From IMG/VR virus record IMGVR_UViG_3300028025_000092: a DNA stretch of 64,000 nucleotides. One strand, given 5' to 3'. The stretch is from a virus. A program made the translations under genes and the position numbers. Shown here in pieces: positions 8,330 to 23,315 of this stretch. Under the pieces are notes generated by a model that made no database searches, was not told where the DNA came from, and saw only the letters and a program-made list of their open reading frames with translations. Numbering within the stretch: position 1 is the stretch's first letter; each line of letters opens with the position of its first letter.

Positions 8330-8334
8330 CAACT

Positions 8335-8407
8335 GCCTCCTTAGCTCAGCTGGTAGAGCGACGCACTTGTAATGCGTAGGTCATTGGTTCGATCCCGATA
8401 GGAGGCT
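8335..8407 (+). tRNA. tRNA-Thr(TGT)
   Basis: GCCTCCT/AGGAGGC, ACGCA-CTTGTAA-TGCGT. Confidence 0.95.
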
Positions 8408-8474
8408 CAACGCTAACGTAAAATACGTACGCTAACATAATATCTGTTAGAATACAAAAGTTCGGTAGCAAGCT

Positions 8475-8572
8475 TATTAGACCCCGCAGAGGCTGGCGCC
8501 ACCAGTATGGACGTAACGTTCATGCCATACTGAAAGCACGCGGAAACGCTGAAATGGTGGTCGGGTCTAATA
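8475..8572 (+). ncRNA. Candidate structured ncRNA (multi-way junction)
   Basis: TATTAGACCC/GGGTCTAATA closing stem; CCACCA/TGGTGG; GTATGG/CCATAC; GCG-GAAA-CGC GNRA hairpin. Confidence 0.6.
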
Positions 8573-8575
8573 CTT

Positions 8576-8665
8576 AGAGAGGTGTCCGAGAGGCTGATGG
8601 AGCACGCTTGGAAAGCGTGTTTACGAGTGATCGTAACAAGGGTTCGAATCCCTTTCTCTCTGCCA
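8576..8665 (+). tRNA. tRNA-Ser(GGA), CCA encoded
   Basis: AGAGAGG/TCTCTCT, CACGC-TTGGAAA-GCGTG, variable arm, GCCA end. Confidence 0.95.
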
Positions 8666-8675
8666 AAAGATATAT

Positions 8676-8796
8676 GCCGGTGTGGCGGAATGAATGATCT
8701 CGAATTCGAATAGAGATTATTAGACGTCCCGTAATTCTAGAAAAGGTGGTGAATCCGAAATGGACACCGTGGAGGTAGCCAGACCTCCCACCGGCA
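8676..8796 (+). ncRNA. tRNA-Leu-like RNA with D-loop hairpin insertion, unpaired anticodon region and non-canonical T-loop
   Basis: GCCGGTG/CACCGGC-A acceptor; TGGCGGAATG...AGACG Leu-type D arm; GGAGG-TAGCCAGA-CCTCC T arm. Confidence 0.7.
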
Positions 8797-8803
8797 CCTT
8801 TTT

Positions 8804-8889
8804 GCCTGGGTGTTGAAATAGGTAGACAAGACAGACTTAAAATCTGTTGGACTGTAAAGTCCGTGCGGGTTCGATTCCCGCCCCAGGTA
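8804..8889 (+). tRNA. tRNA-Leu(TAA)
   Basis: GCCTGGG/CCCAGGT-A, ACAGA-CTTAAAA-TCTGT, variable arm. Confidence 0.95.
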
Positions 8890-8892
8890 CAT

Positions 8893-8978
8893 CCTAATGA
8901 TAGCGTCAAGCCGGATTTTGCGACTTCGTTAGGTCAGATCTGTCCAATAGGAGAGCCGGCTGCGACCCTGGACAGATC
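8893..8978 (+). ncRNA. Candidate twin-hairpin ncRNA with repeated AGCCGG..TGCGAC loop motif
   Basis: CCTAATGA/TCGTTAGG and GATCTGTCCA/TGGACAGATC stems, each enclosing AGCCGG-(n)-TGCGAC. Confidence 0.5.
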
Positions 8979-8987
8979 ACTACATTT

Positions 8988-9061
8988 GGTTCTGTAGCTC
9001 AGCTGGATAGAGCGCCACCCTTCTAAGGTGGATGTCGTTGGTTCGAATCCAACCGGGATCA
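8988..9061 (+). tRNA. tRNA-Arg(TCT)
   Basis: CCACC-CTTCTAA-GGTGG, TTCGAAT. Confidence 0.95.
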
Positions 9062-9064
9062 CAA

Positions 9065-9199
9065 TTAAGGTTGATTGGGGAATGGTGATATGAAATACCT
9101 GGTAGAGGTGGGAAGTTAATATCATCGGAGTTTGAACTACCACTAGTAATGCCAGTTGTAAAAGAGATTGTCCACTGAACCATCTTTCTCTTTCCTTAA
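9065..9199 (+). ncRNA. Candidate structured ncRNA with possible pseudoknot
   Basis: TTAAGG/CCTTAA ends; ATGGT/ACCAT; GATAT/ATATC enclosing ACCT-GGTAG-AGGT; loop GGTAG complementary to CTACC (9137-9141). Confidence 0.45.
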
Positions 9200-9204
9200 A
9201 ATAT

Positions 9205-9278
9205 GTTGGATGTAGCTCAGTTGGCAGAGCACTAGCTTGTGGCGCTAGATGTCGCCGGTTCGATCCCGGTCGTTCAAC
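9205..9278 (+). tRNA. tRNA-His(GTG) with encoded G-1
   Basis: CTAGC-TTGTGGC-GCTAG; G-1:C73 identity pair. Confidence 0.95.
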
Positions 9279-9285
9279 CATTACT

Positions 9286-9362
9286 CGGGTAGTTCGGGAG
9301 TCAGGTCACCCGGCTTGGTTTGGGACCAAGACAACTCGCAAGTTCGAATCTTGCCTACCCGA
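9286..9362 (+). tRNA. tRNA-Pro(TGG)
   Basis: CGGGTAG/CTACCCG-A, CTTGG-TTTGGGA-CCAAG. Confidence 0.93.
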
Positions 9363-9364
9363 CA

Positions 9365-9432
9365 GAAAGATCAAAGAGACCGCTAAATCGAGTTAGTGAA
9401 AATCTACATTCTCTTTGGTCTTTTCGTTTTTT
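9365..9432 (+). terminator. Long hairpin with U-rich tail (terminator or processing site)
   Basis: AAAGATCAAAGAG/CTCTTTGGTCTTT stem followed by T runs. Confidence 0.45.
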
Positions 9433-9450
9433 ATTTTCGATGTTTTACTC

Positions 9451-9458
9451 TATATTTG
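9451..9458 (+). promoter_or_regulatory. Bacteroidota-type -7 promoter element TATATTTG
   Basis: Matches TAnnTTTG, 12 nt upstream of tRNA(CAT). Confidence 0.55.
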
Positions 9459-9470
9459 TAACATCAAAAA

Positions 9471-9544
9471 GGACTTGTAGCTCAGTTGGTTAGAGCAAAT
9501 GACTCATAATCATTAGGTCCCTGGTTCGAGCCCAGGCTGGTCCA
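9471..9544 (+). tRNA. tRNA(CAT), probably Ile2 (lysidine, reads ATA)
   Basis: GG-start acceptor, AATGA-CTCATAA-TCATT, A73; lacks initiator features; elongator Met not excluded. Confidence 0.85.
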
Positions 9545-9552
9545 CAAATTTA

Positions 9553-9634
9553 GGCCCTCTGTTGTAATTGGTAGCCAAGCCAGACTTAGGATCTGGTGTC
9601 GCAAGACGTGAGAGTTCGAGTCTCTCGGGGGTCA
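9553..9634 (+). tRNA. tRNA-Leu(TAG)
   Basis: CCAGA-CTTAGGA-TCTGG, variable arm GTC-GCAA-GAC. Confidence 0.93.
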
Positions 9635-9645
9635 CAACTTTTATT

Positions 9646-10680
9646 ATGAACAAACAAAGGGTATGTGCTATAATAGGGTCGTACACTAAAACCCATTTAG
9701 ACACGGCTCTTCTATCTCTAACAATAGAAGGTATAAAAAGAAGAGGCTATAAAACATGCCTCGCAACCCATGCTCCTGTTAGCCACGAGCTTCAAAAATC
9801 TGTAGATTATTTTATTTACACAGATGAGAATCAAATTCTAAATCCAGGGTTTGAGCAAATGGCCGGATATTATTATAATGGTTCGAATTTTTATTTCAGA
9901 AGTAATTATAGTAACACCAGCGGTGCACATTCTTTTGCAATATTAATGAACATCAAAAATTCATTATGGCTAATGGAAAAGAAAGGATTTACCCATTTTA
10001 TTTATTTTGAATCCGATTCTTTTCTGAATCAAAAAGACCACGAAAAATTAGAAGAAGCCTTATCAGATAAAATGCTAGATCTTGATTATTGGTTCATGAA
10101 CGAAACATATAATCTAGGTGATCAGATATTTCCTGTTACCTCAATATTTTCAGGAAGAATAGAATATTTCTCAAAGAACACAGATCAGATATTTAGCCCA
10201 GACGGTTATTTGGATTTCCTATCATCGGGTGGAAATTGCACATTAGAATCATTTTTTCTTAAATTAATAAACACATATCCCGGAAATGGAACCATTGAAA
10301 AAAATAGACCGAGAGATTTTTTTTCTAGTGAATGGATCGGGATTTCTAGCGGAGGTAATATAGCATTACCAGGATATGATAATCTAATTCTTGATCTTGT
10401 TGATGTAGTAAGAGATTATCACAGCAATGATTCATTCTTCCTTGTGTTCCCCTTTATAAACAGCGGAGAAAATGTTGGGGTTAAAGTATATCTAGATGGG
10501 GTATTAAATCACACAAGAGAAGTTATACCTAATGGGATATTTCATTATTTCAAATTTAATTTTGAAAAATCTTCAACGATAAAAGTAGAATTTCATTATT
10601 TAGGTTCTGTGCGTTATGTTATAGAAAAAAGCGTTGATTCTATAAGATCTAATCAACATTCATACTTTAAATTCAAGTAA
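9646..10680 (+). CDS. Putative glycosyltransferase-like protein
   Basis: Real start MNKQRV after the tRNA; VDYFIYTDEN and YFESD (DxD-like) motifs. Confidence 0.45.
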   Translation: MNKQRVCAIIGSYTKTHLDTALLSLTIEGIKRRGYKTCLATHAPVSHELQKSVDYFIYTDENQILNPGFEQMAGYYYNGSNFYFRSNYSNTSGAHSFAILMNIKNSLWLMEKKGFTHFIYFESDSFLNQKDHEKLEEALSDKMLDLDYWFMNETYNLGDQIFPVTSIFSGRIEYFSKNTDQIFSPDGYLDFLSSGGNCTLESFFLKLINTYPGNGTIEKNRPRDFFSSEWIGISSGGNIALPGYDNLILDLVDVVRDYHSNDSFFLVFPFINSGENVGVKVYLDGVLNHTREVIPNGIFHYFKFNFEKSSTIKVEFHYLGSVRYVIEKSVDSIRSNQHSYFKFK

Positions 10681-10744
10681 AGTATATTTGAATTGGGGGA
10701 ACTTATTTAATTTTTTTGATATAAATTTAGAATAATACCCACCA

Positions 10745-11056
10745 ATGAATAGAGGCAAATTTAAAAAAATAATCAAGGAATATAAAGATGCCTCAAAGTA
10801 TGAGGTATACGAGGGAGTTAGAGATAATTTTATTTTTGGATTTCTTGGTGCAACCCTAGTGGTCTTTATTTCAACAAGAATGGATTTAGCAGTTCTTTCT
10901 GGATATCTTGCTTATTATTTTTTCATGGGTAAAATAGTCAACAGGCCCAAGTATGTTACTTCTCTTGGTAAAATGATAGTGTTTCCTATTCCCTCTGCAC
11001 TTGGGGCTTTTGCTGGCTATAAATTAGCTTATTATCTGCACATTTGGATCTCTTAA
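10745..11056 (+). CDS. Small membrane protein
   Basis: Three hydrophobic segments; GGAAC-N17-TATAAA upstream. Confidence 0.7.
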   Translation: MNRGKFKKIIKEYKDASKYEVYEGVRDNFIFGFLGATLVVFISTRMDLAVLSGYLAYYFFMGKIVNRPKYVTSLGKMIVFPIPSALGAFAGYKLAYYLHIWIS

Positions 11057-11057
11057 A

Positions 11058-12029
11058 TTACCTTTGTTTAAATACGATTGAGGTATCTGGTGCAAATAAT
11101 ACCTTTCCGAATGGAGGTTTGTTATGTACCGTAGGACCACAGATAAACCAGAAAGTTTTGTTTGCGTATTTTGGTATTCCGTACTTCTTTGGATCTGGAT
11201 ATTGAGCCAGTGTGTCTGTTAAATAAATAAAGATTGAAGGATTAATTTTAGTCTTTAGAACATTTTTTTTATGAGCGCCATCAACAAATTCAAACGGAGG
11301 AATAAATCCTTTAGCATTACCCCCGGTGGATGCCCATTTTGAAAGATCCGGCATTTTACCCTTTTTAACTATATCAACATTATCGATATCATCGCTACAA
11401 TAAATGATGTAAGTTGTATCAGCATCGAATTGTTTGCAAAGATAAATTACTTCCTTTATGAAAGTATTGGACACTGTTTGAGAAATAGAACCTGACGTGT
11501 CTATAGCAGCTACGATTGTTCTAAGAGTATCCTTTCCAATAGGCTTTTGTCCGTATAGATATTTCCCACCAGCAACAAATCTTCTGTTTGGAAGAACAGT
11601 ATCTTTAGAACTAAATGAATTATCAAAGAATTTTTTTAATTCTTTTTTCCAATTAACTAAAGGCTCTGATGAAGATAATTTTTTTACCATATCTTTAAAT
11701 CTGCTACTATCAGATTTTGCCATCGCCTTTGCTGCTATGTTTTTCCAATCCGGTGTTGCTTTTTTGCCCTTGTAAATTGAAGACTTACCCTTCTTGGTGT
11801 ATTCAGTTGCTTTATTCTTTATGGATTTAGTTTTGTCGGTTACACTTCTTTGTGTGCTAATACCAGGTTTTTCCTGTCCGACCATAGGGATATCTTCCTT
11901 CCCAGTTGAATCCTCTGTAAATTTTGGTTTCCCTCCGCCACCTGGGGTATTACTATCTCCTTTACCTCGTGGGTTTTGAGTTATGGAATTTGGATCTATT
12001 AATGTATATTGTCCTAATTTTACTAGCAT
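11058..12029 (-). CDS. VWA-like (DUF2201 C-terminal) protein
   Basis: VNWKKELK...PNRR...IVAAIDTSGSIS MIDAS, TGG, IYLTD. Confidence 0.8.
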   Translation of the reverse strand: MLVKLGQYTLIDPNSITQNPRGKGDSNTPGGGGKPKFTEDSTGKEDIPMVGQEKPGISTQRSVTDKTKSIKNKATEYTKKGKSSIYKGKKATPDWKNIAAKAMAKSDSSRFKDMVKKLSSSEPLVNWKKELKKFFDNSFSSKDTVLPNRRFVAGGKYLYGQKPIGKDTLRTIVAAIDTSGSISQTVSNTFIKEVIYLCKQFDADTTYIIYCSDDIDNVDIVKKGKMPDLSKWASTGGNAKGFIPPFEFVDGAHKKNVLKTKINPSIFIYLTDTLAQYPDPKKYGIPKYANKTFWFICGPTVHNKPPFGKVLFAPDTSIVFKQR

Positions 12030-12045
12030 TTTCTGTGTTTTAGTA

Positions 12046-12414
12046 TTAAACTTCTATGTCACCATTAGGAAGTACTCTTTTGATTGTGGTTTCTGTCCCG
12101 TCAGATAGTATTACTCTATCACCAACGTTTGGTAATGAAGGTGGCGGGGTTTTATCCCCATCCTCGTCTCCTGGTTTTTCTCCCGGTAAACCTGGTATTG
12201 GTTTTTTTTCACCTAAGCCTGGTAATGGCTTTTCCCCAGGACCCTCGGTTACACCTGTAATAGTTTCTCCCCCACCTCCTCCTCCGTCTCCTTTGCCTTC
12301 CTGAGGATCTACTATAACATCAAATTCGTTTCTTTTTAAAGACATTTGACCCATAGTGCTTTCGTTTACTTCTTTTGATTTTGAAAATTCACCGAATGAA
12401 AATATTTTATTCAT
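12046..12414 (-). CDS. Small protein with N-terminal F-x-E-F..NE motif and C-terminal KOW/SH3-like module
   Basis: MNKIFSFGEF..VNES; NVGDRVILSDG..IKRV..NGDIEV. Confidence 0.65.
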   Translation of the reverse strand: MNKIFSFGEFSKSKEVNESTMGQMSLKRNEFDVIVDPQEGKGDGGGGGGETITGVTEGPGEKPLPGLGEKKPIPGLPGEKPGDEDGDKTPPPSLPNVGDRVILSDGTETTIKRVLPNGDIEV

Positions 12415-12425
12415 GTTTATAATTA

Positions 12426-13394
12426 TTATATCTCGTTAACATCTGCTAAATCAGAAAGATTAGATCTACCAGAGGATGCTGCTCTTTCCATCTTTACTTC
12501 TTCCTCTGTCATTTCATCTATATCATGGGTTCCGTCAGAATTGATGGATGTTATCTTTCCATATCTTCCGTCCTTACTTTTAATAAGATCTCCAACTTTA
12601 GCTTGATGAACTTTAGACCCACCGCCTGCTTCACCACCTCCTGCTTCATCATCTTCTTCACCATCTCCTGCTTCACCATTATCGTCTTCTTCAGATCCAC
12701 CCGGGGTATCATCATATTCATCCTCTCCGGTTTCTTCAAACTCGTCTTCCCCCTCTTCTATTTGTATTTCTAAACCTTCACTAGGTCCAGGAAGGGGAGT
12801 TCCTTCGTCTACGACATTTCCTAGATCCTGATTCTCTTGTTTTGGCAGTGGATTATCTTTGATTATTTCATAAATATCTTCTGCTCTCATTCCAGAATAC
12901 TTTTCCTCTAAAAGACCCATTCTAGATCCATCCGCATTTTTTGGCCATGCAGTTTCGTCTTTAGCTTGTCCAAAATCCTCCCCATCCAAAATAGGATTGA
13001 TGGCATAATCACAAGCATAGTTCCATATTAGTGGATTTCTATCTTGCCTTCTTTTCATATGATCTCCAATACAATGTAGTAATTCGTGTGCCAAAACTAG
13101 TCTTATAGCTGCATCAGTTTGGGATGCCACGAATTCCGGATGAAATATAATTCTTTTACCATCAGTGCACATTGTTTTGGGTCTAATTGCATCAGATCCA
13201 TATATGTCAATGTTTGATAATAGATCCGCATAATCTGCTTTTCGAAGATTCATCCAGATTATTGATCTGTTTATTCTTTTGGTGATTTCGACAGGATCAT
13301 AACCAAGATTGCTTTCGGAATAATCTGCATCTTCATTTTCGTTTATTGATTTAATAAACGACTTAAAAGATCCGTATTTTATGAATTTACTCAT
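12426..13394 (-). CDS. DUF2201-N putative metallopeptidase
   Basis: TMCTDG..I.F.PEF, LAHELLH (HExxH), WNYACDYAIN. Confidence 0.8.
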   Translation of the reverse strand: MSKFIKYGSFKSFIKSINENEDADYSESNLGYDPVEITKRINRSIIWMNLRKADYADLLSNIDIYGSDAIRPKTMCTDGKRIIFHPEFVASQTDAAIRLVLAHELLHCIGDHMKRRQDRNPLIWNYACDYAINPILDGEDFGQAKDETAWPKNADGSRMGLLEEKYSGMRAEDIYEIIKDNPLPKQENQDLGNVVDEGTPLPGPSEGLEIQIEEGEDEFEETGEDEYDDTPGGSEEDDNGEAGDGEEDDEAGGGEAGGGSKVHQAKVGDLIKSKDGRYGKITSINSDGTHDIDEMTEEEVKMERAASSGRSNLSDLADVNEI

Positions 13395-13400
13395 TATCGT

Positions 13401-14969
13401 TTATCTAATTTTAGCCTGCGCAGATGCTGTAACCATTTTTCCCATTTTATCTGCTAAATCATGATCCGGACTGGCACCATCTGTTACAGCAGCCAGTGAT
13501 TCTGGGAATTTATTGTGTATTGATTTCAATAACCAGCTTGATATTTCTGCCTGTCCGTATTGTACAAAATACTCCACGATATTATAAAGAGTTTGAATAT
13601 CATACGTTTTAACTTTCTTAATAACCATTTCGCCGACGCCTCTTAGAATACTCTTGTTTTTTTCTACCCCTGGTATTTTAATCGCTGCTGCTGGATTATT
13701 CATTATAGTCTCAATGTCTCTTTCTGAGATATTTCTTAAAACATCTAGATATGCATTAAAAGCTCCTGCTGCCTCTGGACCTACCTCACTTCTAAAAATA
13801 TTTAGAATTTCCTTACTTGGTACGTCTCTCCAGCTTTTACCCCCTACGAATTTAATCTCGTCTAATAAAATTAAAGCCCCATCTGTCCATGATCTTGGCG
13901 TTGGGAATGTTTTAGACTCCTCCGTTGGATCTAATCTATGGAAAAATTGTTTATTATCGCCTAAAAAGGATACCAGTTCTGGTAAGATTTTTCCTGCCAT
14001 TTTTCCTTCGGTTGAAGATGCCCACTCACCCCATTCTTCCACGGTAGGAACATAATTAACTATAGTGAATCTGTTCGCCAATGCAAAATCAAATTCTGTA
14101 ACATTCGGTGCTTCTGCCTCTCTGTTACCTGCTGCTATAATAACCCATTTTTCCGGAAGTTGATAATCGGGAAGTCTACCCATTTGAACGAATTGCATCA
14201 ATTTATTTAACACGTTTTTATCTGCTCTATTCATTTCATCAAGGAAAATAAATCCTCCCTTTCCTTCCTTTCCATTATCTGTTGGTAGATTTGCGGGTGC
14301 ATTAAATCTAGTAAATCCCTTTCCTTGAGAAGTCATTACCCTTTTCTTTATTACATTTCCCTCAGAATCTTCTGTCTCTATATCCTGGAATGTTGGTTCT
14401 TCTATATTGTGCTGACTTGGTACCCCAGAAAAATCTTCAGGATTCATAAACTGAACATCAAGATTTTTAAAGTCCATTAGCGGAATGCCTAATTCAGTCG
14501 CTACTTCACCAACTATTTGGGTCTTACCAATTCCAGGTGCTCCATAAACGAAAATTGGTTTTGCTCTACCTCCTGATATTTTCGAGGTATAAAGTCTTCT
14601 AATCATATTTTTAAATTCCGCAGTATTTATATCTCTTACACCTTCTCGCGGATTCGGATATTCAAGTCCTACAACATCAGCTACACCTTCCATCATTCCA
14701 CCAGATCCGTGAACTTCTTCTATCTGTTTATCAATTGGACCATTTTCTGGTAAATATAACATAACTGAAGGTTTACCTGCATAAGGTTGCCCTGCTGGGA
14801 TTTTTGGAATATCACCGTTTGTTAGCTTGTCATAGAATGACTTTGCCCATCCGGTTAGTTTGTCGATAACGTTATCCTTAATCCAAGAAAATACACCTTC
14901 GTTAACAGTGTTTCTGTTTACCTGTTGTCTATCTTTGATAAAGGTCTCAAAATTGGAAACTCTTCTCAT
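13401..14969 (-). CDS. MoxR-like AAA+ ATPase
   Basis: Walker A GAPGIGKT, Walker B IFLDE, AAGNR, ALANRF, TPRSW. Confidence 0.9.
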   Translation of the reverse strand: MRRVSNFETFIKDRQQVNRNTVNEGVFSWIKDNVIDKLTGWAKSFYDKLTNGDIPKIPAGQPYAGKPSVMLYLPENGPIDKQIEEVHGSGGMMEGVADVVGLEYPNPREGVRDINTAEFKNMIRRLYTSKISGGRAKPIFVYGAPGIGKTQIVGEVATELGIPLMDFKNLDVQFMNPEDFSGVPSQHNIEEPTFQDIETEDSEGNVIKKRVMTSQGKGFTRFNAPANLPTDNGKEGKGGFIFLDEMNRADKNVLNKLMQFVQMGRLPDYQLPEKWVIIAAGNREAEAPNVTEFDFALANRFTIVNYVPTVEEWGEWASSTEGKMAGKILPELVSFLGDNKQFFHRLDPTEESKTFPTPRSWTDGALILLDEIKFVGGKSWRDVPSKEILNIFRSEVGPEAAGAFNAYLDVLRNISERDIETIMNNPAAAIKIPGVEKNKSILRGVGEMVIKKVKTYDIQTLYNIVEYFVQYGQAEISSWLLKSIHNKFPESLAAVTDGASPDHDLADKMGKMVTASAQAKIR

Positions 14970-15099
14970 TTTTTATCTTTTTTGATTTATATATCTAAGT
15001 AAATTCGACCTATCTTTATAAAAGATGAGAAAATCTAAAAATCCATAAAAATTCAGGAAGACCCAATGTCTTAACCTGCTAATTAATTATAATGATTAT

Positions 15100-15127
15100 G
15101 AAACAAACCTCAAAAAAGATATATAAC
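15100..15127 (+). promoter_or_regulatory. Promoter for tRNA operon 2 leader
   Basis: GAAAC 15100-15104, 17-nt spacer, TATAAC; overlaps GATATATA 15118-15125. Confidence 0.6.
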
Positions 15128-15143
15128 ATTCAATCAATCAAAA

Positions 15144-15230
15144 ATGGTAAATCAGAGCACATATAATAATTGCTATCAAATGTCTGAACAAGGCAATGAG
15201 ATGGATTATATGCGCACGGATCTGGTTTAA
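15144..15230 (+). CDS. Leader peptide of tRNA operon 2 (MVNQSTYNNCYQMSEQGNEMDYMRTDLV)
   Basis: 28-codon ORF; 13 of codons 3-22 are N/Q/Y/C/E; last codons plus stop form the antiterminator strand. Confidence 0.8.
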   Translation: MVNQSTYNNCYQMSEQGNEMDYMRTDLV

Positions 15231-15252
15231 CATTTTTTTAAATATATTTTTT

Positions 15253-15284
15253 AAACCCAGATCTTAATAAGGTCTGGGTTTTTT
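15253..15284 (+). terminator. Attenuator terminator of tRNA operon 2
   Basis: AAACCCAGATCTT/AAGGTCTGGGTTT stem plus T tract; alternative 13-bp pairing of GGATCTGGTTTAA (15218-15230) with TTAAACCCAGATCT (15251-15264). Confidence 0.85.
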
Positions 15285-15291
15285 ATTTGAT

Positions 15292-15362
15292 GTCGATTTG
15301 GCCGAGAGGATAGGTAGGGGTCTGCAAAACCTCTCACACAGGTTCGAATCCTGTAGTCGACT
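15292..15362 (+). tRNA. tRNA-Cys(GCA)
   Basis: GTCGATT/AGTCGAC-T, GGGGT-CTGCAAA-ACCTC. Confidence 0.93.
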
Positions 15363-15370
15363 CAGAAATT

Positions 15371-15442
15371 GGGGATGTAGCTCAGTGGTAGAGCGGGTCA
15401 CTGTTAATGACTAGGTCGTAGGTTCGAACCCTTCCATCCCCG
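15371..15442 (+). tRNA. tRNA-Asn(GTT)
   Basis: GGGGATG/CATCCCC-G, GGTCA-CTGTTAA-TGACT. Confidence 0.95.
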
Positions 15443-15448
15443 CAAAAT

Positions 15449-15520
15449 GCTCCTATCGACTAGTGGTTAGGTCACATCCCTTTCACGGATGTAGCACGGG
15501 TTCGAATCCCGTTGGGAGTA
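15449..15520 (+). tRNA. tRNA-Glu(TTC)
   Basis: CATCC-CTTTCAC-GGATG, TTCGAAT. Confidence 0.95.
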
Positions 15521-15528
15521 CAAAAATT

Positions 15529-15610
15529 GGGAGCATCGTCTAGCGGCAATGACAAGTGACTGTAAATCACTCCTCTTTCGAGTTCGCAGGTTCGAGTCCT
15601 GCTGCTCCCA
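15529..15610 (+). tRNA. tRNA-Tyr(GTA)
   Basis: AGTGA-CTGTAAA-TCACT, variable arm. Confidence 0.95.
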
Positions 15611-15617
15611 CTAAAAT

Positions 15618-15688
15618 TGCCCGATGGTGTAACGGTAGCACAACTCCCTTTGACGGAGTTAGTTTAGGTTCGAATCCTAATCGGGCAT
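15618..15688 (+). tRNA. tRNA-Gln(TTG)
   Basis: TGCCCGA/TCGGGCA, ACTCC-CTTTGAC-GGAGT. Confidence 0.95.
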
Positions 15689-15693
15689 CAGAA

Positions 15694-16302
15694 TTACCAA
15701 TAATATTTTTCCCATTCAAAATTTTCGAGGGGGGTGAAATACTTATCATATTCTTTGCGTAACGGATTACTAACTAAATTTGGCCCATGAGGGAGAACGT
15801 GGGAAATACCATATTTAGAAGCAAATTCTTTAGCTTTTGCGATAATCTCTGGCATTTTTTTGATACCTTCTTCATCATTCTTGCTATAAAATTTTGCTTC
15901 CATGCTAAATTCTTTTCCTGAATCCCTCCTAGCTCCTGGTGCAAAAATTCTAATGGGATCATATGCCATCCTTCTGTAAATATACATAGGTCGGTAATAT
16001 ATGATCTCGCACTCAAGATCCTCTAGTTTATTTCCGATATACTCTCGTATATTTTTTTCAGCACACTCCGCTCTTTTAATCTCACTATCATCTAGTGTGT
16101 ACCTGGTTTGGAATGGATAGCAGCTATCAATCAATTTATATTGCTGATTATCACTGAATAGTTCTTTCACCGCATCCTCGTTCTGTATTAGTCCTTTTAT
16201 AATGGTTCTATTATGAAGAACCAACGTAAATGTGAGATCGAAAAAATCAATTACAGATGGTGAATTAACCCCGAAATTTTCATATATTGAAACGTGCTTC
16301 AT
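15694..16302 (-). CDS. Hypothetical protein with MKHVSIYENF N-terminus
   Basis: 202-aa ORF; GATATATA upstream on minus strand (16309-16316). Confidence 0.7.
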   Translation of the reverse strand: MKHVSIYENFGVNSPSVIDFFDLTFTLVLHNRTIIKGLIQNEDAVKELFSDNQQYKLIDSCYPFQTRYTLDDSEIKRAECAEKNIREYIGNKLEDLECEIIYYRPMYIYRRMAYDPIRIFAPGARRDSGKEFSMEAKFYSKNDEEGIKKMPEIIAKAKEFASKYGISHVLPHGPNLVSNPLRKEYDKYFTPLENFEWEKYYW

Positions 16303-16400
16303 GTTTTGTATATATCTGGTAGAATTCTACATGTTTCCCTGCCCATTACCGATGGAAAAAATGAAATATTTTAACTATCATATATAAAATAAAATCCCCA

Positions 16401-17174
16401 ATGTTTAAATATCTTACAAAGGAGGAAGTCCAACAGCTTTCCTTCGATTGGAAATATAAAGGATATTCTATTATAGATCTGATCACGCCAGAAGAAGCCG
16501 ATTTAATATCGGAGAATCTAGATAATTTAAGAAAGAAAAGAAATTCGGTAGATGATAAGTACGGTGAGTATGACCCTTACATGCACCCACACAAAGAATC
16601 CGAGTTAGTGTCTAAGATCCTTGGACATCCTAAAATATTAGAATCCGTGGAGTTTATAATAAATTCGGAGATTCAAGGAATACAAACGTGGGCTTATTTT
16701 AAACCACCCGGGGAACTTGGTAGGGATGCACACCAAGATGCTTTCTATGCTCAAACACAATGGAATAAAACTGCTAATGTTAGTATATCTCTAGATAATA
16801 CCGATGAGTCAAATGGTGGTATTTGGGTTTATGAGGCTTCTCATCTTCTACCAATTTTACCTATAGAGATAGATGAGGAAAGAGCTAAGCTCAATCCAAT
16901 CAGATGGAGGAACGAGAGGGGTAAGGCTTGTGTTATGCCAGAAGGACATAATTTTAGCAAAATAACACCACATGTTAACAAAGGACAAGCAATTTTTTTG
17001 CATTCTCATATAGTTCACGGATCGAATGAGAATAAAAGCAATCGATTCAGAAGATCTATATTGAGTGGATATACTGGAAAGGGATCGCCATTTAGAAGCG
17101 GGGAACACATGAAAAGGGAACCAATCGACGTTTATGAACTAAAATTAAAATATTGGGAGGTAAAAAAACTCTAA
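16401..17174 (+). CDS. PhyH-family Fe(II)/2-oxoglutarate dioxygenase
   Basis: FKPPG..HQD, ISLDN..ESNG, HGS..N.S..R. Confidence 0.85.
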   Translation: MFKYLTKEEVQQLSFDWKYKGYSIIDLITPEEADLISENLDNLRKKRNSVDDKYGEYDPYMHPHKESELVSKILGHPKILESVEFIINSEIQGIQTWAYFKPPGELGRDAHQDAFYAQTQWNKTANVSISLDNTDESNGGIWVYEASHLLPILPIEIDEERAKLNPIRWRNERGKACVMPEGHNFSKITPHVNKGQAIFLHSHIVHGSNENKSNRFRRSILSGYTGKGSPFRSGEHMKREPIDVYELKLKYWEVKKL

Positions 17175-17184
17175 TAGATTTTAC

Positions 17185-18396
17185 ATGAAGCTGATACAAA
17201 CGTTCGTTCCTAATAAGTTTGATCTAAAAAAAGAGAATGATAAAGATATAATCTGGAAGGATTTAATGTATGTTCAAATGCTCAGTGTTCTACTTGCTAA
17301 TAGGGAATATGGGGGTATTTCATTATACACTAATAGAAAAATAAAAAATCAAATATTAGACATAGGTGTTCCCTACACCAATATTGATACCGATATATTA
17401 CAGGACACTACATCCGATTTATTCTGTATACCAAAACTTAGAATATACAAAGAAATAAAGGAGCCATTTGTTCATATAGATACGGATACCCTCGTATACG
17501 ATAGAATAGATTTTTCTAAATATAATGCATCAGTAGTATATTCACATCCTGATCTTAGACCACCAGTTCATAAAAATTGTGACGATAAATTACTTGATAT
17601 CTTTAATAATTATCCATCATTGGGTGATTCTGACTCCTTTTTTAAATCTGCCAAGGTAACATACCTCGATTTATTTAATAAATTAACTAATGAACATTCG
17701 GAATTTAAATTAAATAACATTAGGATAGGGGATATTCCTAATATGAATGTAGTTATCGTTAATGATTATGATAGTTTTAATTTGGCAGCACAAATGTCAC
17801 TAGATCACTATATAAAAAATAAGGATCTAATAGACAATACTAAAAACGGGGAATGTTACATTGAACAGCTTATGATTCATTTAAACCTGATGGAAATAAG
17901 TCAAAAATACAGGGAAGAGGTAGGATTGAAACAAACATTCATTCTTAAAGATTCACCTCTCATGCTTGATGCTAATTTTGGAGCCAACTTAGATAGTATA
18001 GAATTTCCCTTCACTATGATACACAATTCACATAAAGATTCTGAAATAGATGAAACAATTCTTATTAATGGTGTATTATATTCAAAGAAAATGGAATATC
18101 ACGAGCATTACGGTAGAATAACTAGAATTAACACGACGGAGGACATTGTAAAACTCTTCGATTTTAATTTCTATGGTCTTTCTCATCTTTCCTTTTATAA
18201 ATGGTCTGAAATTTTTCAGGCAATAGTAATAGGGTATATTATAAAAAACTTTGGTGAAGAATATGTTAGAAATATTTATGAATATTACAAAACAATCTAT
18301 CCGTCGTTATATAATCTTCCTCCATTATCTAAAGGCGAAATATTATACCAAAAATTGACAGGATTTAAATTTGAAAGGATAAAAGGTTTGATCTGA
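17185..18396 (+). CDS. Putative glycosyltransferase (DUF6734-like)
   Basis: ISLYTN...PKLRIY...EPFVHIDTD (DxD), IEQ motif. Confidence 0.55.
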   Translation: MKLIQTFVPNKFDLKKENDKDIIWKDLMYVQMLSVLLANREYGGISLYTNRKIKNQILDIGVPYTNIDTDILQDTTSDLFCIPKLRIYKEIKEPFVHIDTDTLVYDRIDFSKYNASVVYSHPDLRPPVHKNCDDKLLDIFNNYPSLGDSDSFFKSAKVTYLDLFNKLTNEHSEFKLNNIRIGDIPNMNVVIVNDYDSFNLAAQMSLDHYIKNKDLIDNTKNGECYIEQLMIHLNLMEISQKYREEVGLKQTFILKDSPLMLDANFGANLDSIEFPFTMIHNSHKDSEIDETILINGVLYSKKMEYHEHYGRITRINTTEDIVKLFDFNFYGLSHLSFYKWSEIFQAIVIGYIIKNFGEEYVRNIYEYYKTIYPSLYNLPPLSKGEILYQKLTGFKFERIKGLI

Positions 18397-18404
18397 ATAA
18401 AAAT

Positions 18405-18477
18405 GCGGGAGTAGCTCATTTGGTAGAGCGATAGCCTTCCAAGCTATAGGTGGCCGGTTCGAGCCCGGTCTCCCGCT
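18405..18477 (+). tRNA. tRNA-Gly(TCC)
   Basis: GCGGGAG/CTCCCGC-T, ATAGC-CTTCCAA-GCTAT. Confidence 0.95.
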
Positions 18478-18574
18478 CACACTAAACCAGAATATGCATA
18501 ATAAACTATTCCGGTTTATTTATCAAAAATAGGTTTATTAGGTTACTGTAATATCGAAAATAAAATATAATAAA

Positions 18575-18808
18575 ATGTCACAATCAAGAGTAGTTAAAGC
18601 CTTACTAGCTGGTGCAATTGCTGAAAGAGAGCATGCTCTAATGTCTTTAGAACTTCTAACAGAAAAGTCAGTTGGAATTGGAGATCATACAGCAAACGAT
18701 TTTTTAAAAGATGCAGAGATTGCATTACAGAGGTTAGTAGATGCTGATGATAAGATAGAAGCCATCAATAAGTATTTTTCAGAAGGCAAATTAAGGGAAT
18801 CTGTTTAA
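18575..18808 (+). CDS. Hypothetical helical protein
   Basis: 77 aa, VGIGDH motif, A-rich leader. Confidence 0.7.
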   Translation: MSQSRVVKALLAGAIAEREHALMSLELLTEKSVGIGDHTANDFLKDAEIALQRLVDADDKIEAINKYFSEGKLRESV

Positions 18809-18843
18809 GAATATATAAATTTTATATTTAACACTAATTATAC

Positions 18844-19001
18844 TGGTCGGTGATGAAAAGCGTATGCACGGCAGACATGCCCTCCTGTCTCGAGGGTGCG
18901 GATAACGAGATAGATAAATGGTAATGGGTTGACCACACGCTTGCAAGCATAAGTGCCATTTATTGAATTGCCGCATGGGGGTTCGAATCCTTCCTGACCA
19001 G
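18844..19001 (+). tRNA. Giant (158 nt) tRNA-Asp(GTC)-like RNA with 80-nt variable arm
   Basis: TGGTCGG/CTGACCA-G73; CCCTC-CTGTCTC-GAGGG; GGGGG-TTCGAAT-CCTTC; long paired variable region. Confidence 0.75.
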
Positions 19002-19115
19002 CATTGAACATGGATTCAGCTCCTCCTACCTCTAGTAGTAAAAGTCATATGATGCGCAGTATGATGTTAGATGTTCACCCTCACTTATATTGGGGTTTAA
19101 GAGTAGGATACATTA

Positions 19116-19144
19116 AAAACCCAGATCTAAAAGATCTGGGTTTT
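19116..19144. terminator. Bidirectional intrinsic terminator
   Basis: AAAACCCAGATCT-AAA-AGATCTGGGTTTT between convergent units. Confidence 0.85.
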
Positions 19145-19173
19145 ATTTTTGGAATATTTAAATTACAATAGAA

Positions 19174-19776
19174 TTATTTATGATCCTTTGGACTGCAAAT
19201 CATTTCTAATTGATCCCATTTAAATTTTGGTTTTTCGTTTAGAAAAACAAAGCATCTCCATTTTTTCTGAGATTCAAAATAAATATGTTTTTGTAGATAT
19301 GAAGGAATGGCTGCATTAGTAGCAACTCTTTTTACCGGATTATCAAAAAATATTTTAATTAAAACTGTTAAATTTTCGGTGTCGTCCCATTTTCTAATCT
19401 GCTCTTCCAGCATTCTCCATTCCCCTCTATTTAAATATTGATTCTGCATTATACAATTAAGATAAGAAAAGGTTTGCTTTAAATTTTCCATGTTATCTGA
19501 AAATGTAGCGGCGGGTGCTCCGTGTCCTTTGTCATAAACATTCTTTATATAATCTTCACCATCGGATGTTTTAATTGTCTTCTCCGGGTAAAAATCCATT
19601 GATCCCCTATTAACATTAGTTGGTCTATTAGTAGATCTGTACTTAATCCATAAAGGTTGCTCTAATTTTTGAGAATAGAGTACTTCAAAAACCTGATTTT
19701 TTATTCTGACTGTATCCTGTGCTTTTAATCCAATTGATAGTGTAAGAATCAATAATAGCGTTAGAAATTTCTTCAT
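19174..19776 (-). CDS. Secreted DNA/RNA non-specific (beta-beta-alpha-Me) endonuclease
   Basis: Signal peptide MKKFLTLLLILTLSIGLKA; YDKGH (DRGH-like), TF..LN..Q...NRG.W..LE. Confidence 0.85.
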   Translation of the reverse strand: MKKFLTLLLILTLSIGLKAQDTVRIKNQVFEVLYSQKLEQPLWIKYRSTNRPTNVNRGSMDFYPEKTIKTSDGEDYIKNVYDKGHGAPAATFSDNMENLKQTFSYLNCIMQNQYLNRGEWRMLEEQIRKWDDTENLTVLIKIFFDNPVKRVATNAAIPSYLQKHIYFESQKKWRCFVFLNEKPKFKWDQLEMICSPKDHK

Positions 19777-21182
19777 TTTTTTAATTTTAATTTATTAATC
19801 GGAACATTTATATGTTTACCGAAGGGAATCCTACGATCAGTAGTTATTGCCCATATTATTTTTTTGTGCCAATTTGGTTTTTCAGGATCTTCGGCACCTC
19901 CATCCGTGAAATATATCATGCATGCTAGATCTTTGCCTTTTTTAATTAGGTTATTTTCCACCCATTTTATTGGGGGATTAAAACCCTCTTCGTTTCCTCC
20001 AGTGGATTTTTGTTTTTCCAAATCCAGCAATTGACCTGGCGATTTTAACCTGTCAATATCACCAGAAGGTGGCTCTATCCCATCGCTACAATAGATAATA
20101 TATATTTCTTTTGGGAGAAAACACTTTAATATGCTTCTAGATTCCTCTATAAAAGCATTGTACTCCTCTTTCCCTATACTTCCTGAGGTATCTATTGCTA
20201 TTACTATTGTACCAAGACCCTCCATTCTTCCTTTAAGCCCAGGAAGGTAAAGATCTTGAAAGATGTGTCTCCTGTTTGGTATCTTATACACAGAAAAATC
20301 ATCATCCATCTCTGAGGTGTATCTTTGTAGTGTTTTTTTCCAATCTACTTGTGGATTCATCAGATTGTCTATAAATTTTCTTAAAGCTGGGGATGTTCCG
20401 CCATTACCCGTTCCCTTATTAGACGATCTTTCTGTTATTTCCCTTATTTTTCTAGTCACCTCTCTTTTCTTTAATGTGTTATCTTTCAGAGGCTGGAATA
20501 ATTTTTTATTTTGACTACCACCAGAATCATCCCATCCTTTATCCGATGAACCTTTTTTATCCGAACTACCTTCGCCGGAATCCAAAACCTCGGTTTCTTT
20601 GTTCGTTTTTTTATCTAAGTTCTGTTTTTTATTTTCTTCTAAGGAACCCTCAGATTTTAATAAATCCCCTATTATAACCTCGTTGATATAGCTTTCATTT
20701 ATTTCCCCGGGATTTAAAACGTCACAATAAGACCTGTATTCTACTACTTGTTGGATTTTACCACTGAGTATATCATCATATATTTCTTCAGCTGAGCCAT
20801 TTATAAATCTCGAATCTTGGTATTCTTTAGGAAGAAAAGATTTACAAATTCCATCAAGATATTGATGGGAAATTATATCACAGGCCAGATTCCACTCGTG
20901 GAATAGATTATCATTCTTTCTATCAAAATGTTGTAATGCTAGGTGTATTATTCCCTGATTTATTGACCATGTTATCTCTTCGTCACTTATCTCCAAACAA
21001 TTTAGAGGGTTAAATATAAAAGCTGTACCGTCCGTCGAAAAAAATTGGCAATCATTGGACGAAGCTACAGGGATCTCAGAAAGAAAATTTCCAAAAAATC
21101 CTCCCTTCATTAAAATCTTGGAAACACATCTTTTTATCTTGATGACAGATTTTTCGTAGTTTTCTTTATCCGATATATTCAT
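19773..21182 (-). CDS. Fused DUF2201 metallopeptidase-like + VWA protein (degenerate HExxH)
   Basis: STDG..F.FNP, NQGIIH in place of HExxH, WNLACD, VDWK, PNRR, IDTSGS. Confidence 0.8.
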   Translation of the reverse strand: MNISDKENYEKSVIKIKRCVSKILMKGGFFGNFLSEIPVASSNDCQFFSTDGTAFIFNPLNCLEISDEEITWSINQGIIHLALQHFDRKNDNLFHEWNLACDIISHQYLDGICKSFLPKEYQDSRFINGSAEEIYDDILSGKIQQVVEYRSYCDVLNPGEINESYINEVIIGDLLKSEGSLEENKKQNLDKKTNKETEVLDSGEGSSDKKGSSDKGWDDSGGSQNKKLFQPLKDNTLKKREVTRKIREITERSSNKGTGNGGTSPALRKFIDNLMNPQVDWKKTLQRYTSEMDDDFSVYKIPNRRHIFQDLYLPGLKGRMEGLGTIVIAIDTSGSIGKEEYNAFIEESRSILKCFLPKEIYIIYCSDGIEPPSGDIDRLKSPGQLLDLEKQKSTGGNEEGFNPPIKWVENNLIKKGKDLACMIYFTDGGAEDPEKPNWHKKIIWAITTDRRIPFGKHINVPINKLKLKK

Positions 21183-21192
21183 TTAATGGCTA

Positions 21193-22443
21193 TTATACTT
21201 CCCTCATGAAATTTCTATACTTGGATACGAAAGGAGTAACATTTTTTTCCAGGGTTACGTCGCTAAGATAATCCTTAACCTCTGGGTGTGTTCTTTTAAT
21301 TAAATTTAAACCGCTCATCGCTATTTCGCCGGAATCTAGATTTATCAGATATTCAACAAAATTTATAAATTCTTCTTTCGATATAACTTTTCCATTTTTG
21401 TATTTGGATGTCATATACATTACAGCATACGACTTTCTAAGATCATAATTTCCGGAATCTAAAACGGGAAGAGATAGATCTGAATTTTTAGGATCGCTAA
21501 ATATTCTAGAGATTCTTTCAACTGGCCAAACTTTGGTTGTTTCTATAAAATCTGTTATAATCGAAGATACTTTTTTGCCGACATGCTTATTAAATATCTT
21601 ATTGATTTCTTTCTCCGATAGAATTTCATCTTTTGCTATTTTTTTTCTTTCGGAGTATTCCCTTGCTGCATAATCCCAGGATCTTGGCGTTACCCCCATT
21701 GTCGTGTCGAGTGTCGATATGGATTCAGGAGAGATGTAAAAATATTCTTGCATGAGTTCTACAAAAGAAACAACATCATCGTCGAGATCTCTGTTTCTTG
21801 CCCACTCTACCCAGCTAGATGGATCGGAGATAAGATTAATTTGTGCGAATCTATTTGCCAAAGCAAAACTCATCGGTTTTATAGATCCACCTGGTTCATC
21901 CTCCTGTCTATTTGCTGCGGCAACTATTAGCCATTTGTCTGGGATCTTATAATTTGCTCCTGCTATCTCCCGATCAAAAATAACTTTAAGCATTGCTGCT
22001 TGAACCGATGGATGTGCTCTATTGATCTCGTCCAAAAATATTATTCCGCCCTTCCCCTCAACCTTTGTTTTGTTTCCTGTATTGTCGATAATTTCTTTAT
22101 CTCCATTATCAATAGGCCATATTCTTGGAAGATAATTGACCGATCTTTTTATATCTGGTATTTTCTCGTCTGGGAGTATTCCAGGAAGTCCTACAACATC
22201 AGTCGGTTCCATAAGGCTAAGAATAACCTCGATCACAGGAACTTCTTTATTTTCTAGTCCAAAAGATTTTACTATTGAGGTTTTACCTATTCCAGGTGCT
22301 CCCCATATTAGCAGGGGTCTTCCTGATTCAGGATTTCTAAAATGATATTCTAGCTCATCTATGAGCTCCTTGGGGGTAAAATTATCAATTTCGGGGTCCT
22401 GAGTCTTTTGTGCAATTTTCCAAACTGGATCTAATTCATTCAT
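21193..22443 (-). CDS. MoxR-like AAA+ ATPase (second copy)
   Basis: GAPGIGKT, IFLDE, ALANRF, TPRSW; start revised to MNELDP after GATATATA (22450-22457). Confidence 0.9.
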   Translation of the reverse strand: MNELDPVWKIAQKTQDPEIDNFTPKELIDELEYHFRNPESGRPLLIWGAPGIGKTSIVKSFGLENKEVPVIEVILSLMEPTDVVGLPGILPDEKIPDIKRSVNYLPRIWPIDNGDKEIIDNTGNKTKVEGKGGIIFLDEINRAHPSVQAAMLKVIFDREIAGANYKIPDKWLIVAAANRQEDEPGGSIKPMSFALANRFAQINLISDPSSWVEWARNRDLDDDVVSFVELMQEYFYISPESISTLDTTMGVTPRSWDYAAREYSERKKIAKDEILSEKEINKIFNKHVGKKVSSIITDFIETTKVWPVERISRIFSDPKNSDLSLPVLDSGNYDLRKSYAVMYMTSKYKNGKVISKEEFINFVEYLINLDSGEIAMSGLNLIKRTHPEVKDYLSDVTLEKNVTPFVSKYRNFMREV

Positions 22444-22529
22444 TATTTTTATATATCGAAAAATAAAACCGCTCAATAATGAAATATTATTAAGGTTTAG
22501 GGATAGAAATAAAGAAATATCACACAACA

Positions 22530-23315
22530 ATGAAGGCTTTCGGTAAATTTGACGCAGCTATTAACTGGACTAAAGAGAAAATGCACGACTTTTGTTACGA
22601 GGTCCACACTGAAAAGTGGCAGGGAAAGGATATTAAAGGAGACGATAGGTTTGCAATGATTGAAATACTTAACCACTCTTTTACATGTACAATGGTAGAG
22701 GATCTCCCCACCCTAGTAGATCAGATCAAGCCCAATTTACCCTGGGCAAATGACCATTTTGAAGAAAGGGTCAGTGGAAGACCCCTAAATCCCCCTCCTT
22801 CCCATAATTGGTGGCCATTTGCTCAGAAGAACAATGCTGAATTCGGGGGGAACACTAAATTTTCACACACATATCCAGAAAGGATCTGGCCTAAATATGC
22901 AGATAAAAGTGTAGGGGTGGATCCACATAAAGGAATAAGATTTAATTACGGAGATTTTGATGATGTGATTAATCTAATGGTCAAGGAGCCATTTACTAGA
23001 CAGGCATTTCTTCCGATTTGGTTTCCTGAAGATACTGGAGGGGCAAACGGAGAAAGAGTACCTTGTACAATAGGATATCATTTCATTAGGAGACATAATT
23101 ACCTACATGTAGTTTACTATATTAGATCCTGTGATTTCTTTAGACATTTTAGAGACGACATTTATTTAGCGTGTAGGAAGGTTATTTGGGCACTGGAAAA
23201 ATTGAGAGAGAAAGATCCAGATTCATGGAATGATGTTAAGCCTGGGATGTATACGATGCATATAACATCACTACATGCATTCAAGCACGAAAAGGTTTTA
23301 TTAAAGAAGAAATAA
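22530..23315 (+). CDS. Thymidylate synthase-fold enzyme, possibly dCMP (hydroxy)methyltransferase
   Basis: TRQA, VPCT catalytic Cys, RSCDFFRHFRDDIY, SLHAF. Confidence 0.75.
   Translation: MKAFGKFDAAINWTKEKMHDFCYEVHTEKWQGKDIKGDDRFAMIEILNHSFTCTMVEDLPTLVDQIKPNLPWANDHFEERVSGRPLNPPPSHNWWPFAQKNNAEFGGNTKFSHTYPERIWPKYADKSVGVDPHKGIRFNYGDFDDVINLMVKEPFTRQAFLPIWFPEDTGGANGERVPCTIGYHFIRRHNYLHVVYYIRSCDFFRHFRDDIYLACRKVIWALEKLREKDPDSWNDVKPGMYTMHITSLHAFKHEKVLLKKK

Follow-up and report, generated by a model that had tools for sequence, protein, structure and literature searches.

A predicted tRNA-Asp-like RNA with a giant variable arm, encoded by large phages and bacterial chromosomes

The locus and its predicted fold

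The window, as we call the whole stretch of 64,000 nucleotides that was analyzed, belongs to a large tailed phage, with genes for a tail sheath, tail fibres, an SbcC-like nuclease and a DnaB-like helicase, and it carries three tRNA arrays in which ARAGORN identified 15 tRNA genes. At 18844-19001 (+), downstream of an array member, lies a 158-nt RNA gene with a tRNA-Asp-like fold and an extra arm of approximately 80 nt (Table 1).

Table 1. Position of the RNA, its parts and its immediate neighbours in the window
Feature	Position	Strand	Remarks
tRNA-Gly(UCC), array member upstream of the RNA	18405-18478	+	ARAGORN and Rfam
77-aa ORF between tRNA-Gly(UCC) and the RNA	18575-18808	+	
Acceptor stem, 5' strand TGGTCGG	18844-18850	+	7/7 pairs with 18994-19000; begins U1 G2
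U8 G9, Leu-type D arm, then position 26	18851-18879	+	
D stem ATG/CAT, 3 bp	18853-18855 with 18876-18878	+	Encloses 20-nt loop
Anticodon arm	18880-18896	+	Stem CCCTC/GAGGG, loop CUGUCUC
Anticodon GUC	18887-18889	+	U37 is 18890
Variable arm, 79 nt	18897-18975	+	Helices predicted independently by RNAalifold
Arm basal helix (T)GCGG/CCGC(A)	18898-18901 with 18971-18974	+	
Arm 3-bp helix	18906-18908 with 18968-18970	+	From family covariation
Arm long helix GATAAATGGTA/TGCCATTTATT	18913-18923 with 18954-18964	+	
Two apical arm hairpins	18925-18937 and 18939-18948	+	From family covariation
Single base between variable arm and T stem	18976	+	
T arm GGGGG-TTCGAAT-CCTTC	18977-18993	+	
Acceptor stem, 3' strand CTGACCA (18994-19000), and discriminator G73 (19001)	18994-19001	+	Followed by CA, not CCA
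Conserved 3' trailer and intrinsic terminator	19002-19144	+	Hairpin 19116-19144, then T run; terminator scan

The preliminary description of this DNA had reported an intact acceptor stem, G73, GTC anticodon stem and T arm, together with a Leu/Ser-type D arm in which ATG and CAT surround a 20-nt loop and a U at position 37, and all of these are present in the sequence at the positions of Table 1. The variable region that it delimited (18897-18976, 80 nt) does hold the arm helices, but the arm itself ends at 18975 and the base at 18976 is separate from it. Similarly, both arm helices that it had listed were found, but the 3-bp helix and the two apical hairpins were missing from its list. The geometry is that of a class II tRNA, with a D stem of 3 bp formed by positions 10-12 and 23-25 and with a basal arm helix whose first base pair lies 1 base past the anticodon stem and whose end lies 2 bases short of the T stem. 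The D loop of the window copy contains a 2-bp mini-hairpin (GC-GTAT-GC) in addition to the invariant G18 and G19 (18870-18871), and the copy has U33, A10 instead of G10, and G3-C70. When the window copy was folded alone, its minimum free energy (MFE) was not significantly different from that of shuffled sequences (z = -0.84), and in the MFE structure the cloverleaf gave way to a competing helix of 8 bp in which the anticodon loop (CUGUCUCG) pairs with the arm (CGAGAUAG). Because of these two results, a single sequence is unable to decide the structure.

The nearest record in IMG/VR (G001) has an identical copy of the RNA. Between the two phages, identity is 99% from the RNA up to the terminator and approximately 94% in the flanking coding DNA. 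The trailer at 19002-19115, with 98-99% identity to G001 and likewise preserved in the relative L064, could belong to a longer RNA or could be a small ORF that starts with the ATG at 19021 and continues through the terminator. In L064 and in the close relative L070, the genes stand in the same order, Gly(tcc) followed by the long RNA. An Endonuclease_NS gene (19174-19776) abuts the terminator of the RNA, and two modules with AAA+ (MoxR-like) and DUF2201 metallopeptidase/VWA genes (11058-14969 and 19773-22530, -) flank the tRNA region.

All 15 other tRNA genes of the window end in N73-C-A, as does the RNA, and not in CCA. The tRNA genes at 8245-18478 and those in the arrays of the relatives have C-A after the discriminator everywhere, never CCA. 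Because of this ending, the tRNA genes of these arrays rely on a CCA-adding/repair enzyme, and the identical ending of the RNA points to the same maturation route. Within the 64-kb window we found no canonical tRNA-Asp, and the RNA is the sole gene with a GUC anticodon among 16 tRNA-type genes. A canonical tRNA-Asp(GUC) gene of L070, located between a tRNA-Gln and a PhyH gene, is missing at that place in the window; the site is occupied there by a 202-aa ORF without Pfam match (15694-16302, -).

Homologues and covariation

When related phages were searched at the DNA level, a copy with 73% identity came up in G003, a complete 274-kb phage, where it follows immediately on tRNA-Ser(UGA) within a tRNA array. 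Compared by eye with the window, this copy has compensatory changes in the acceptor, D and anticodon stems and in both arm helices, and its apical arm sequence is unchanged. We used the conserved arm apex, expressed as the pattern GGTTGACCNNNNGCTTGCAAGC, for a motif scan of IMG/VR. The scan returned 52 loci, versus an estimated number of approximately 3 expected by chance; 50 of these belong to the family, and 2 are chance matches within coding sequence. Full-length copies were obtained from 48 loci, and 35 of these copies are distinct. Neither the window copy nor a copy close to the consensus matched any GenBank phage in blastn searches.

The 35 distinct phage copies were aligned with MAFFT (alignment A2) and the alignment was folded with RNAalifold, which recovered the acceptor, anticodon, T and arm helices with double changes in 22 of 41 pairs and also predicted the 3-bp arm helix and the two apical hairpins. 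When the D stem is included, 98.8% of the cells are paired and double changes occur in 23 of 44 pairs and in 209 cells. In controls in which the 3' partners were slid by 1 to 3 columns, 42-54% of the cells were paired and double changes were limited to 4-11 pairs and at most 22 cells, and none of 500 shuffles reached the observed pairing and covariation. The acceptor stem is a perfect 7-bp helix in 35/35 copies, built from 17 different sequences, so that 100% of its cells are paired, and 5 of its 7 pairs covary. Covariation was also found in the D arm at pair 10-25 (GC in 23 copies, AU in 5, GU in 2), in 4 of the 5 anticodon-stem pairs, and in the T stem at pairs 50-64 and 51-63 (94% of T-stem cells paired, with G53-C61 conserved). 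The preliminary description had named homologues lacking compensatory changes in the long arm as a finding that would refute it. Double changes are in fact present in 3 of 4 pairs of the basal helix, 2 of 3 pairs of the 3-bp helix and 5 of 10 pairs of the long helix. On the covariation we rejected chance or decay as the origin of the fold. The competing helix of the MFE structure was rejected as a conserved structure as well, since it is paired in 71% of the cells, has no double changes and does no better than shuffles. Because the homologues covary, and not on the ground of folding energy, we take the predicted cloverleaf with its giant arm to be real and to be the structure under selection.

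The core tertiary nucleotides U8, A14, G18 and G19, G53-C61 and T54-A58 are present, the T loop has the consensus TTCRANT, and the columns T8, G27/G28 (which correspond to G18 and G19) and GGTTC.A are invariant in the alignment. U1-A72 and G73 were found in 35/35 phage copies and G2-C71 in 34/35, the remaining one having a G-U pair. The anticodon loop (consensus YYGUCUM) has G34-U35-C36-U37 in 35/35 copies and C38 in 33/35; position 33 is a C in 27/35, and G10 is present in 25/35. The apical arm sequence GGGTTGACCAC..GCTTGCAAGC is invariant across the phage copies while the arm stems covary, and so is the arm apex GGGUUGACCAC..GCUUGCAAGC in the alignment. The size of the D-loop hairpin varies, from the 2 bp of the window to 4-7 bp in many other copies.

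In the phage arrays the RNA is located at or near the 3' end, usually as the last element and often right after tRNA-Ser(UGA). A canonical tRNA-Asp(GUC) gene accompanies it in 8 of the 9 loci with a substantial array, G003 and L070 included; the exception is L044. The L044 array also contains a tRNA with the anticodon CTA (an amber suppressor, labelled Pyl by ARAGORN), which hints at TAG recoding in that phage, and a tRNA-like ARAGORN call at L038 has no anticodon assigned. The only recurrent neighbour of the phage copies is a conserved putative two-TM protein of approximately 80 aa (..YYxICxIYCFYQL..APVDxSLTW..), encoded upstream of the RNA or of the array in 16 of the 35 distinct phage loci. 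It lies, for example, 4-6 nt upstream of the RNA in L036, L043, L066 and L077 and 132 nt upstream in L064 and L070, and it is unrelated to the 77-aa ORF of the window (18575-18808). We considered this protein as a conserved partner of the RNA and rejected it, reading the association as probable synteny and not as function.

None of five related phage records encodes an AspRS/AsnRS-type synthetase. An Asn_synthase-domain protein of 476-488 aa (e.g. at L143) is encoded by G002, G003 and G004; no RNA copy was found in G002 by the DNA search. A covariance model built from the phage family (R1, which gives its members approximately 160 bits) has a weak full-length match in G002 (L026, 1899-2004, +; 15.8 bits, E 0.07), in a 106-nt spacer between tRNA-Ser(GGA) and tRNA-Leu(UAA) that is equivalent to 8666-8803 in the window; the match may represent a tRNA-like element that is degenerate or unusual. 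At loci L011, L012 and L013 of related large phages, ARAGORN called a 387-nt tmRNA (984-1370, +; tag ending in ...GADLAVAA*) approximately 1.6 kb from the Endonuclease_NS gene.

A scan of 185,579 prokaryote genomes for the apical motif gave 27 matches, 1 of them real. It lies in a MAG titled 'Bacteroidetes', on a contig of 3.6 kb that holds a complete copy of the family (161.6 bits) and that we suspect to be mis-binned phage DNA. With the covariance model, we searched the genome of this MAG and 150 genomes sampled from its phylum at E ≤ 1e-6 and found matches in 14 of the 150 other genomes, with 57-116 bits in 13 of them, on large chromosomal contigs of up to 5 Mb. As only 1 of the 27 motif matches was real, the bacterial copies were missed by the motif alone and were found by the model. 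One positive genome has only a copy truncated at a contig end, which scored 42 bits, and 67 on re-search. In the bacterial copies the fold is preserved, with 93% pairing and double changes in 24 pairs, and 16/16 have U1-A72 and G2-C71. Their arms range from approximately 30 to 130 nt, with a conserved base and a length that is free to vary. Most retain the apical sequence (GGGTTGACCAC/GGGUUGACCAC); the shortest arms, those of G142, lack it, with the tRNA core kept. The copies of G142 are arranged in tandem (L122, 1501-1610 and 1723-1831; 109-110 nt), and in their loop, CUUUCUC, the glutamate anticodon UUC replaces GUC. In 9 of 14 bacterial loci, a divergent gene for an Lrp/AsnC regulator is located 120-540 nt upstream. 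By sequence and predicted fold, the family occurs both in a clade of large phages and in bacterial chromosomes from the phylum to which the Bacteroidetes MAG belongs.

Relation to tRNAs and other tRNA-like RNAs

ARAGORN, run on the window, did not call the RNA at 18844-19001, and Rfam 15, with its tRNA model RF00005 included, gave no match to it at the gathering score or at E ≤ 10; over 18700-19200, the matches at E ≤ 10 were chance-level ones to unrelated families. The best matches of the family model outside the family are class II tRNAs, with the window's own tRNA-Leu(UAA) at 39.6 bits, the T4 tRNA-Leu at 37.4 bits and then other Leu and Ser tRNAs; the tRNA-Leu matches scored 33-40 bits. 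No tmRNA was detected in the window by ARAGORN or by Rfam, and the window copy has G3-C70 where tmRNA has G3-U70.

Because of these next-best matches and of a D arm close to that of tRNA-Leu, we consider the body to be a class II, Leu-type tRNA. Like tRNA-Leu (RF00005), the RNA has a 7-bp acceptor stem, a 3-bp D stem with a 13:22 mismatch, a standard T loop, the D-arm sequence UG-RUG-AAA..GG.AGA-CAY and a variable arm between the anticodon and T stems. Unlike tRNA-Leu, it has an arm of approximately 80 nt (30-130 nt in bacteria) versus at most approximately 21 nt, G73 (35/35) versus A73, the anticodon GUC, U37, mostly C33 and, in many phage copies, the extra D-loop hairpin. Its loop breaks the rule of U33 and a purine at 37 that RF00005 elongators follow, and with 158 nt in the window it is well outside their range of approximately 70-95 nt. 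The family shares G73, G2-C71, G34-U35-C36, C38 and mostly G10 with canonical tRNA-Asp(GUC), and differs from it in its class II body, its pyrimidine at 37 and its U1-A72 in place of the G1-C72 of the phage tRNA-Asp genes. We detected no sequence homology between the RNA and neighbouring canonical phage tRNA-Asp genes. The predicted molecule is thus a Leu-type body joined to an aspartate-type anticodon loop and discriminator.

The closest described analogue from phages is the T4 species 1 RNA (rnaC, 139 nt), a stable RNA at the end of the T4 tRNA cluster. Its T arm is of the tRNA type (CCGGG-TTCGAAT-CCCGG), a helix resembling an acceptor stem closes the molecule, and a large insert lies inside it; these likenesses are architectural only. 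Unlike the family, it has no recognisable Asp anticodon arm, and its closing helix contains two U-U mismatches. The model gave no match to rnaC at E ≤ 10 in the T4 region (rnaC is L082:2909-3047), and we detected no homology between the two. Allo-tRNAs and tRNA-Sec are long-armed, non-canonical cloverleaves mined from metagenomes, some of them in phages (PMC5389517). They have 8/4 or 9/3 geometry and arms below approximately 25 nt, whereas the family has 7/5 geometry and a far larger, branched arm. A full-text literature search found no paper describing this RNA family, and the family is absent from Rfam 15. A catalogue of viral structured RNAs gives 27 IMG/VR instances for the motif DNAVirus_1850, one of them overlapping an ARAGORN tRNA-Asp call (PMC10690425); DNAVirus_1850 may be the same family.

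Possible functions

We think it probable, though by no means certain, that the window RNA is a genuine, conserved and so far uncatalogued giant-armed tRNA-like RNA, one that would be processed and could probably be charged with aspartate but would not serve as an ordinary decoder. It would be transcribed with the phage tRNA array, cut by RNase P and trimmed at the 3' end, and would then receive its CCA from the host enzyme, as the neighbouring N73-CA tRNAs would. Host AspRS would probably charge it with aspartate, it would be kept out of ordinary decoding, and its arm would offer a sequence-specific site to a putative partner. In E. coli, the AspRS identity set consists of G73, G2-C71, G10, G34 U35 C36 and C38. 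Judged by these E. coli rules, from which those of Bacteroidota may differ, the phage copies carry most of the set (G73 and GUC in 35/35, G2-C71 in 34/35, C38 in 33/35, G10 in 25/35). Against an E. coli-type Asp identity of the window copy stands its A10. AspRS is a class II synthetase and approaches its tRNA on the variable-loop side, and for this reason an arm of 80 nt might get in the way of charging. Nearly all elongator tRNAs have U33 and a purine at 37, and we know of no ribosomal tRNA with a variable arm above approximately 21 nt. We regard the RNA as not an ordinary decoder on four grounds: a pyrimidine at 37 in every copy, a C at 33 in 27/35 copies, an arm 4 times the known maximum, and a canonical tRNA-Asp alongside wherever the array is well covered. 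The preliminary description had foreseen neither that the anticodon loop speaks against normal decoding, nor the usual coexistence with canonical tRNA-Asp, nor the cellular members of the family.

The same observations bear on the idea that the RNA is a working elongator, a tRNA-Asp isoacceptor reading GAC/GAU whose arm is an add-on, for example for protection from a host anticodon nuclease or as a handle for a phage factor. The complete tRNA core and the invariant GUC would suit such a role, and so would the U33 of the window copy. Moreover, the RNA is the only GUC gene among the 16 tRNA-type genes of the window, where the canonical tRNA-Asp of L070 is missing, so this particular copy may have a decoding role. 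We nevertheless consider an elongator unlikely for a family that has U37 in all 35 copies and C33 in 27, against the near-universal U33 and purine 37, and whose arm exceeds the maximum of known ribosomal tRNAs. Furthermore, canonical tRNA-Asp genes accompany the RNA in 8 loci, including the complete genome of G003, and cellular genomes with their own tRNA-Asp keep the RNA too. Rather improbable, in our judgement, is an uncharged mimic of tRNA-Asp that acts as a decoy or sponge and titrates a host protein binding the tRNA-Asp anticodon loop, which might be an anticodon nuclease of a defence system, a toxin like colicin E5 or a modifying enzyme. Some phage tRNAs are known to counteract defences directed at tRNAs. 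The RNA is carried by phages, and the GUCU loop is invariant in an otherwise variable RNA. However, a decoy of the loop would need no U1-A72, G2-C71 or G73, yet these are invariant or nearly so, and chromosomal copies beside an amino-acid-responsive regulator fit an anti-defence role poorly.

The arm is at the centre of the two other alternatives. The tRNA part might be a scaffold for processing and stability, as in engineered tRNA-scaffold RNAs, with the arm as the active part (an aptamer, a protein-binding site or a base-pairing sRNA). The invariant apical motif on covarying stems, the recurrence of GGGTTGACCAC in most bacterial copies and the precedent of the T4 species 1 RNA, a tRNA-ended RNA with a large insert in a phage tRNA operon, are all in line with a scaffold. 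Such a role would not explain why the anticodon loop, U1-A72 and G73 are invariant, and among the bacterial arms of approximately 30-130 nt the shortest (G142) lacks the apical motif while the tRNA core is intact; we hold it to be quite improbable. The arm could also be an intron-like insert that is excised from a precursor, with ligation of the halves into a normal 76-nt tRNA-Asp, as the preliminary description had proposed. Removal of 18898-18974 would indeed leave a variable loop of approximately 3-4 nt, and some phages encode RNA repair enzymes. Yet we found no bulge-helix-bulge, no other intron-like junction and no group I/II signature, Rfam detected nothing, and the arm leaves the core with the junction geometry of a class II variable arm. 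Excision would leave U37 and C33 in place, and the base of the arm is conserved although arm length varies freely. The proposal of an excised insert is hardly credible on these grounds. Of the three readings in the preliminary description, a tRNA with an extra functional domain fits best, as the arm stems covary around the invariant GGGTTGACCAC..GCTTGCAAGC.

Starting from the probably chargeable, non-decoding RNA that we favour, one may speculate further that it is a non-translational aminoacyl carrier whose aspartate would be amidated by GatCAB, and that phages would bring extra copies to exploit the host amidation pathway. U1-A72 is a reported determinant of GatCAB. It is present in 35/35 phage and 16/16 bacterial copies, a likeness to tRNA-Asn and tRNA-Gln as GatCAB substrates (tRNA-dependent amidation; transamidosome of Thermus/Deinococcus); among the phage tRNAs, tRNA-Gln has U1-A72, and tRNA-Asp and tRNA-Asn have G1-C72. 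Further likenesses to the GatCAB route are the anticodon for an acidic amino acid (GUC, and UUC in one bacterium) and the AsnC-family neighbour in bacteria. The invariant U1-A72 and this neighbour suggest a carrier for the conversion of Asp to Asn. AspRS would charge the RNA, GatCAB would amidate it via U1-A72, and the arm, the pyrimidine at 37 and C33 would bar the Asn-RNA from EF-Tu and the ribosome. On this view, it would serve in Bacteroidota as a dedicated, AsnC-controlled cofactor for asparagine supply or transfer, and their large phages would have copied it to reprogramme host amino-acid metabolism. We consider this full scheme of low probability. Unlike the GatCAB substrates, the family has an anticodon for Asp and not for Asn, and the extra D-loop hairpin of the phage copies may conflict with the D-loop size measurement reported for GatCAB. 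Gene content gives no specific support: GatB is encoded in all RNA-positive genomes, yet also in 126 of the 151 sampled overall; AsnB-type genes are present in 12/14 RNA-positive versus 11/14 RNA-negative genomes; and AsnA is absent from all 28 genomes of these two sets. None of the three tests discriminates, and gene content neither supports nor refutes amidation, in a comparison that is confounded without taxonomy.

Few tRNA-shaped RNAs outside decoding are known, among them tmRNA, YrlA, the tRNA-like ends of viral RNAs and the T4 species 1 RNA, and each is informative on how cells reuse the tRNA machinery. The family described here is large and strongly constrained, and it is found both in a bacterial phylum and in the phages of that phylum. 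It retains the marks needed for charging and amidation but breaks the rules of decoding, and it has been overlooked by standard tRNA and RNA annotation tools. New in this work are the covariation across 35 phage copies, the co-residence with tRNA-Asp, the ruling out of the alternative helix and the finding that gene content does not discriminate. If charged, the RNA would represent a new class of aminoacyl carrier; an uncharged RNA would be a tRNA mimic of a new type. In both cases it offers a sequence marker that ties uncultured large phages to Bacteroidota hosts.
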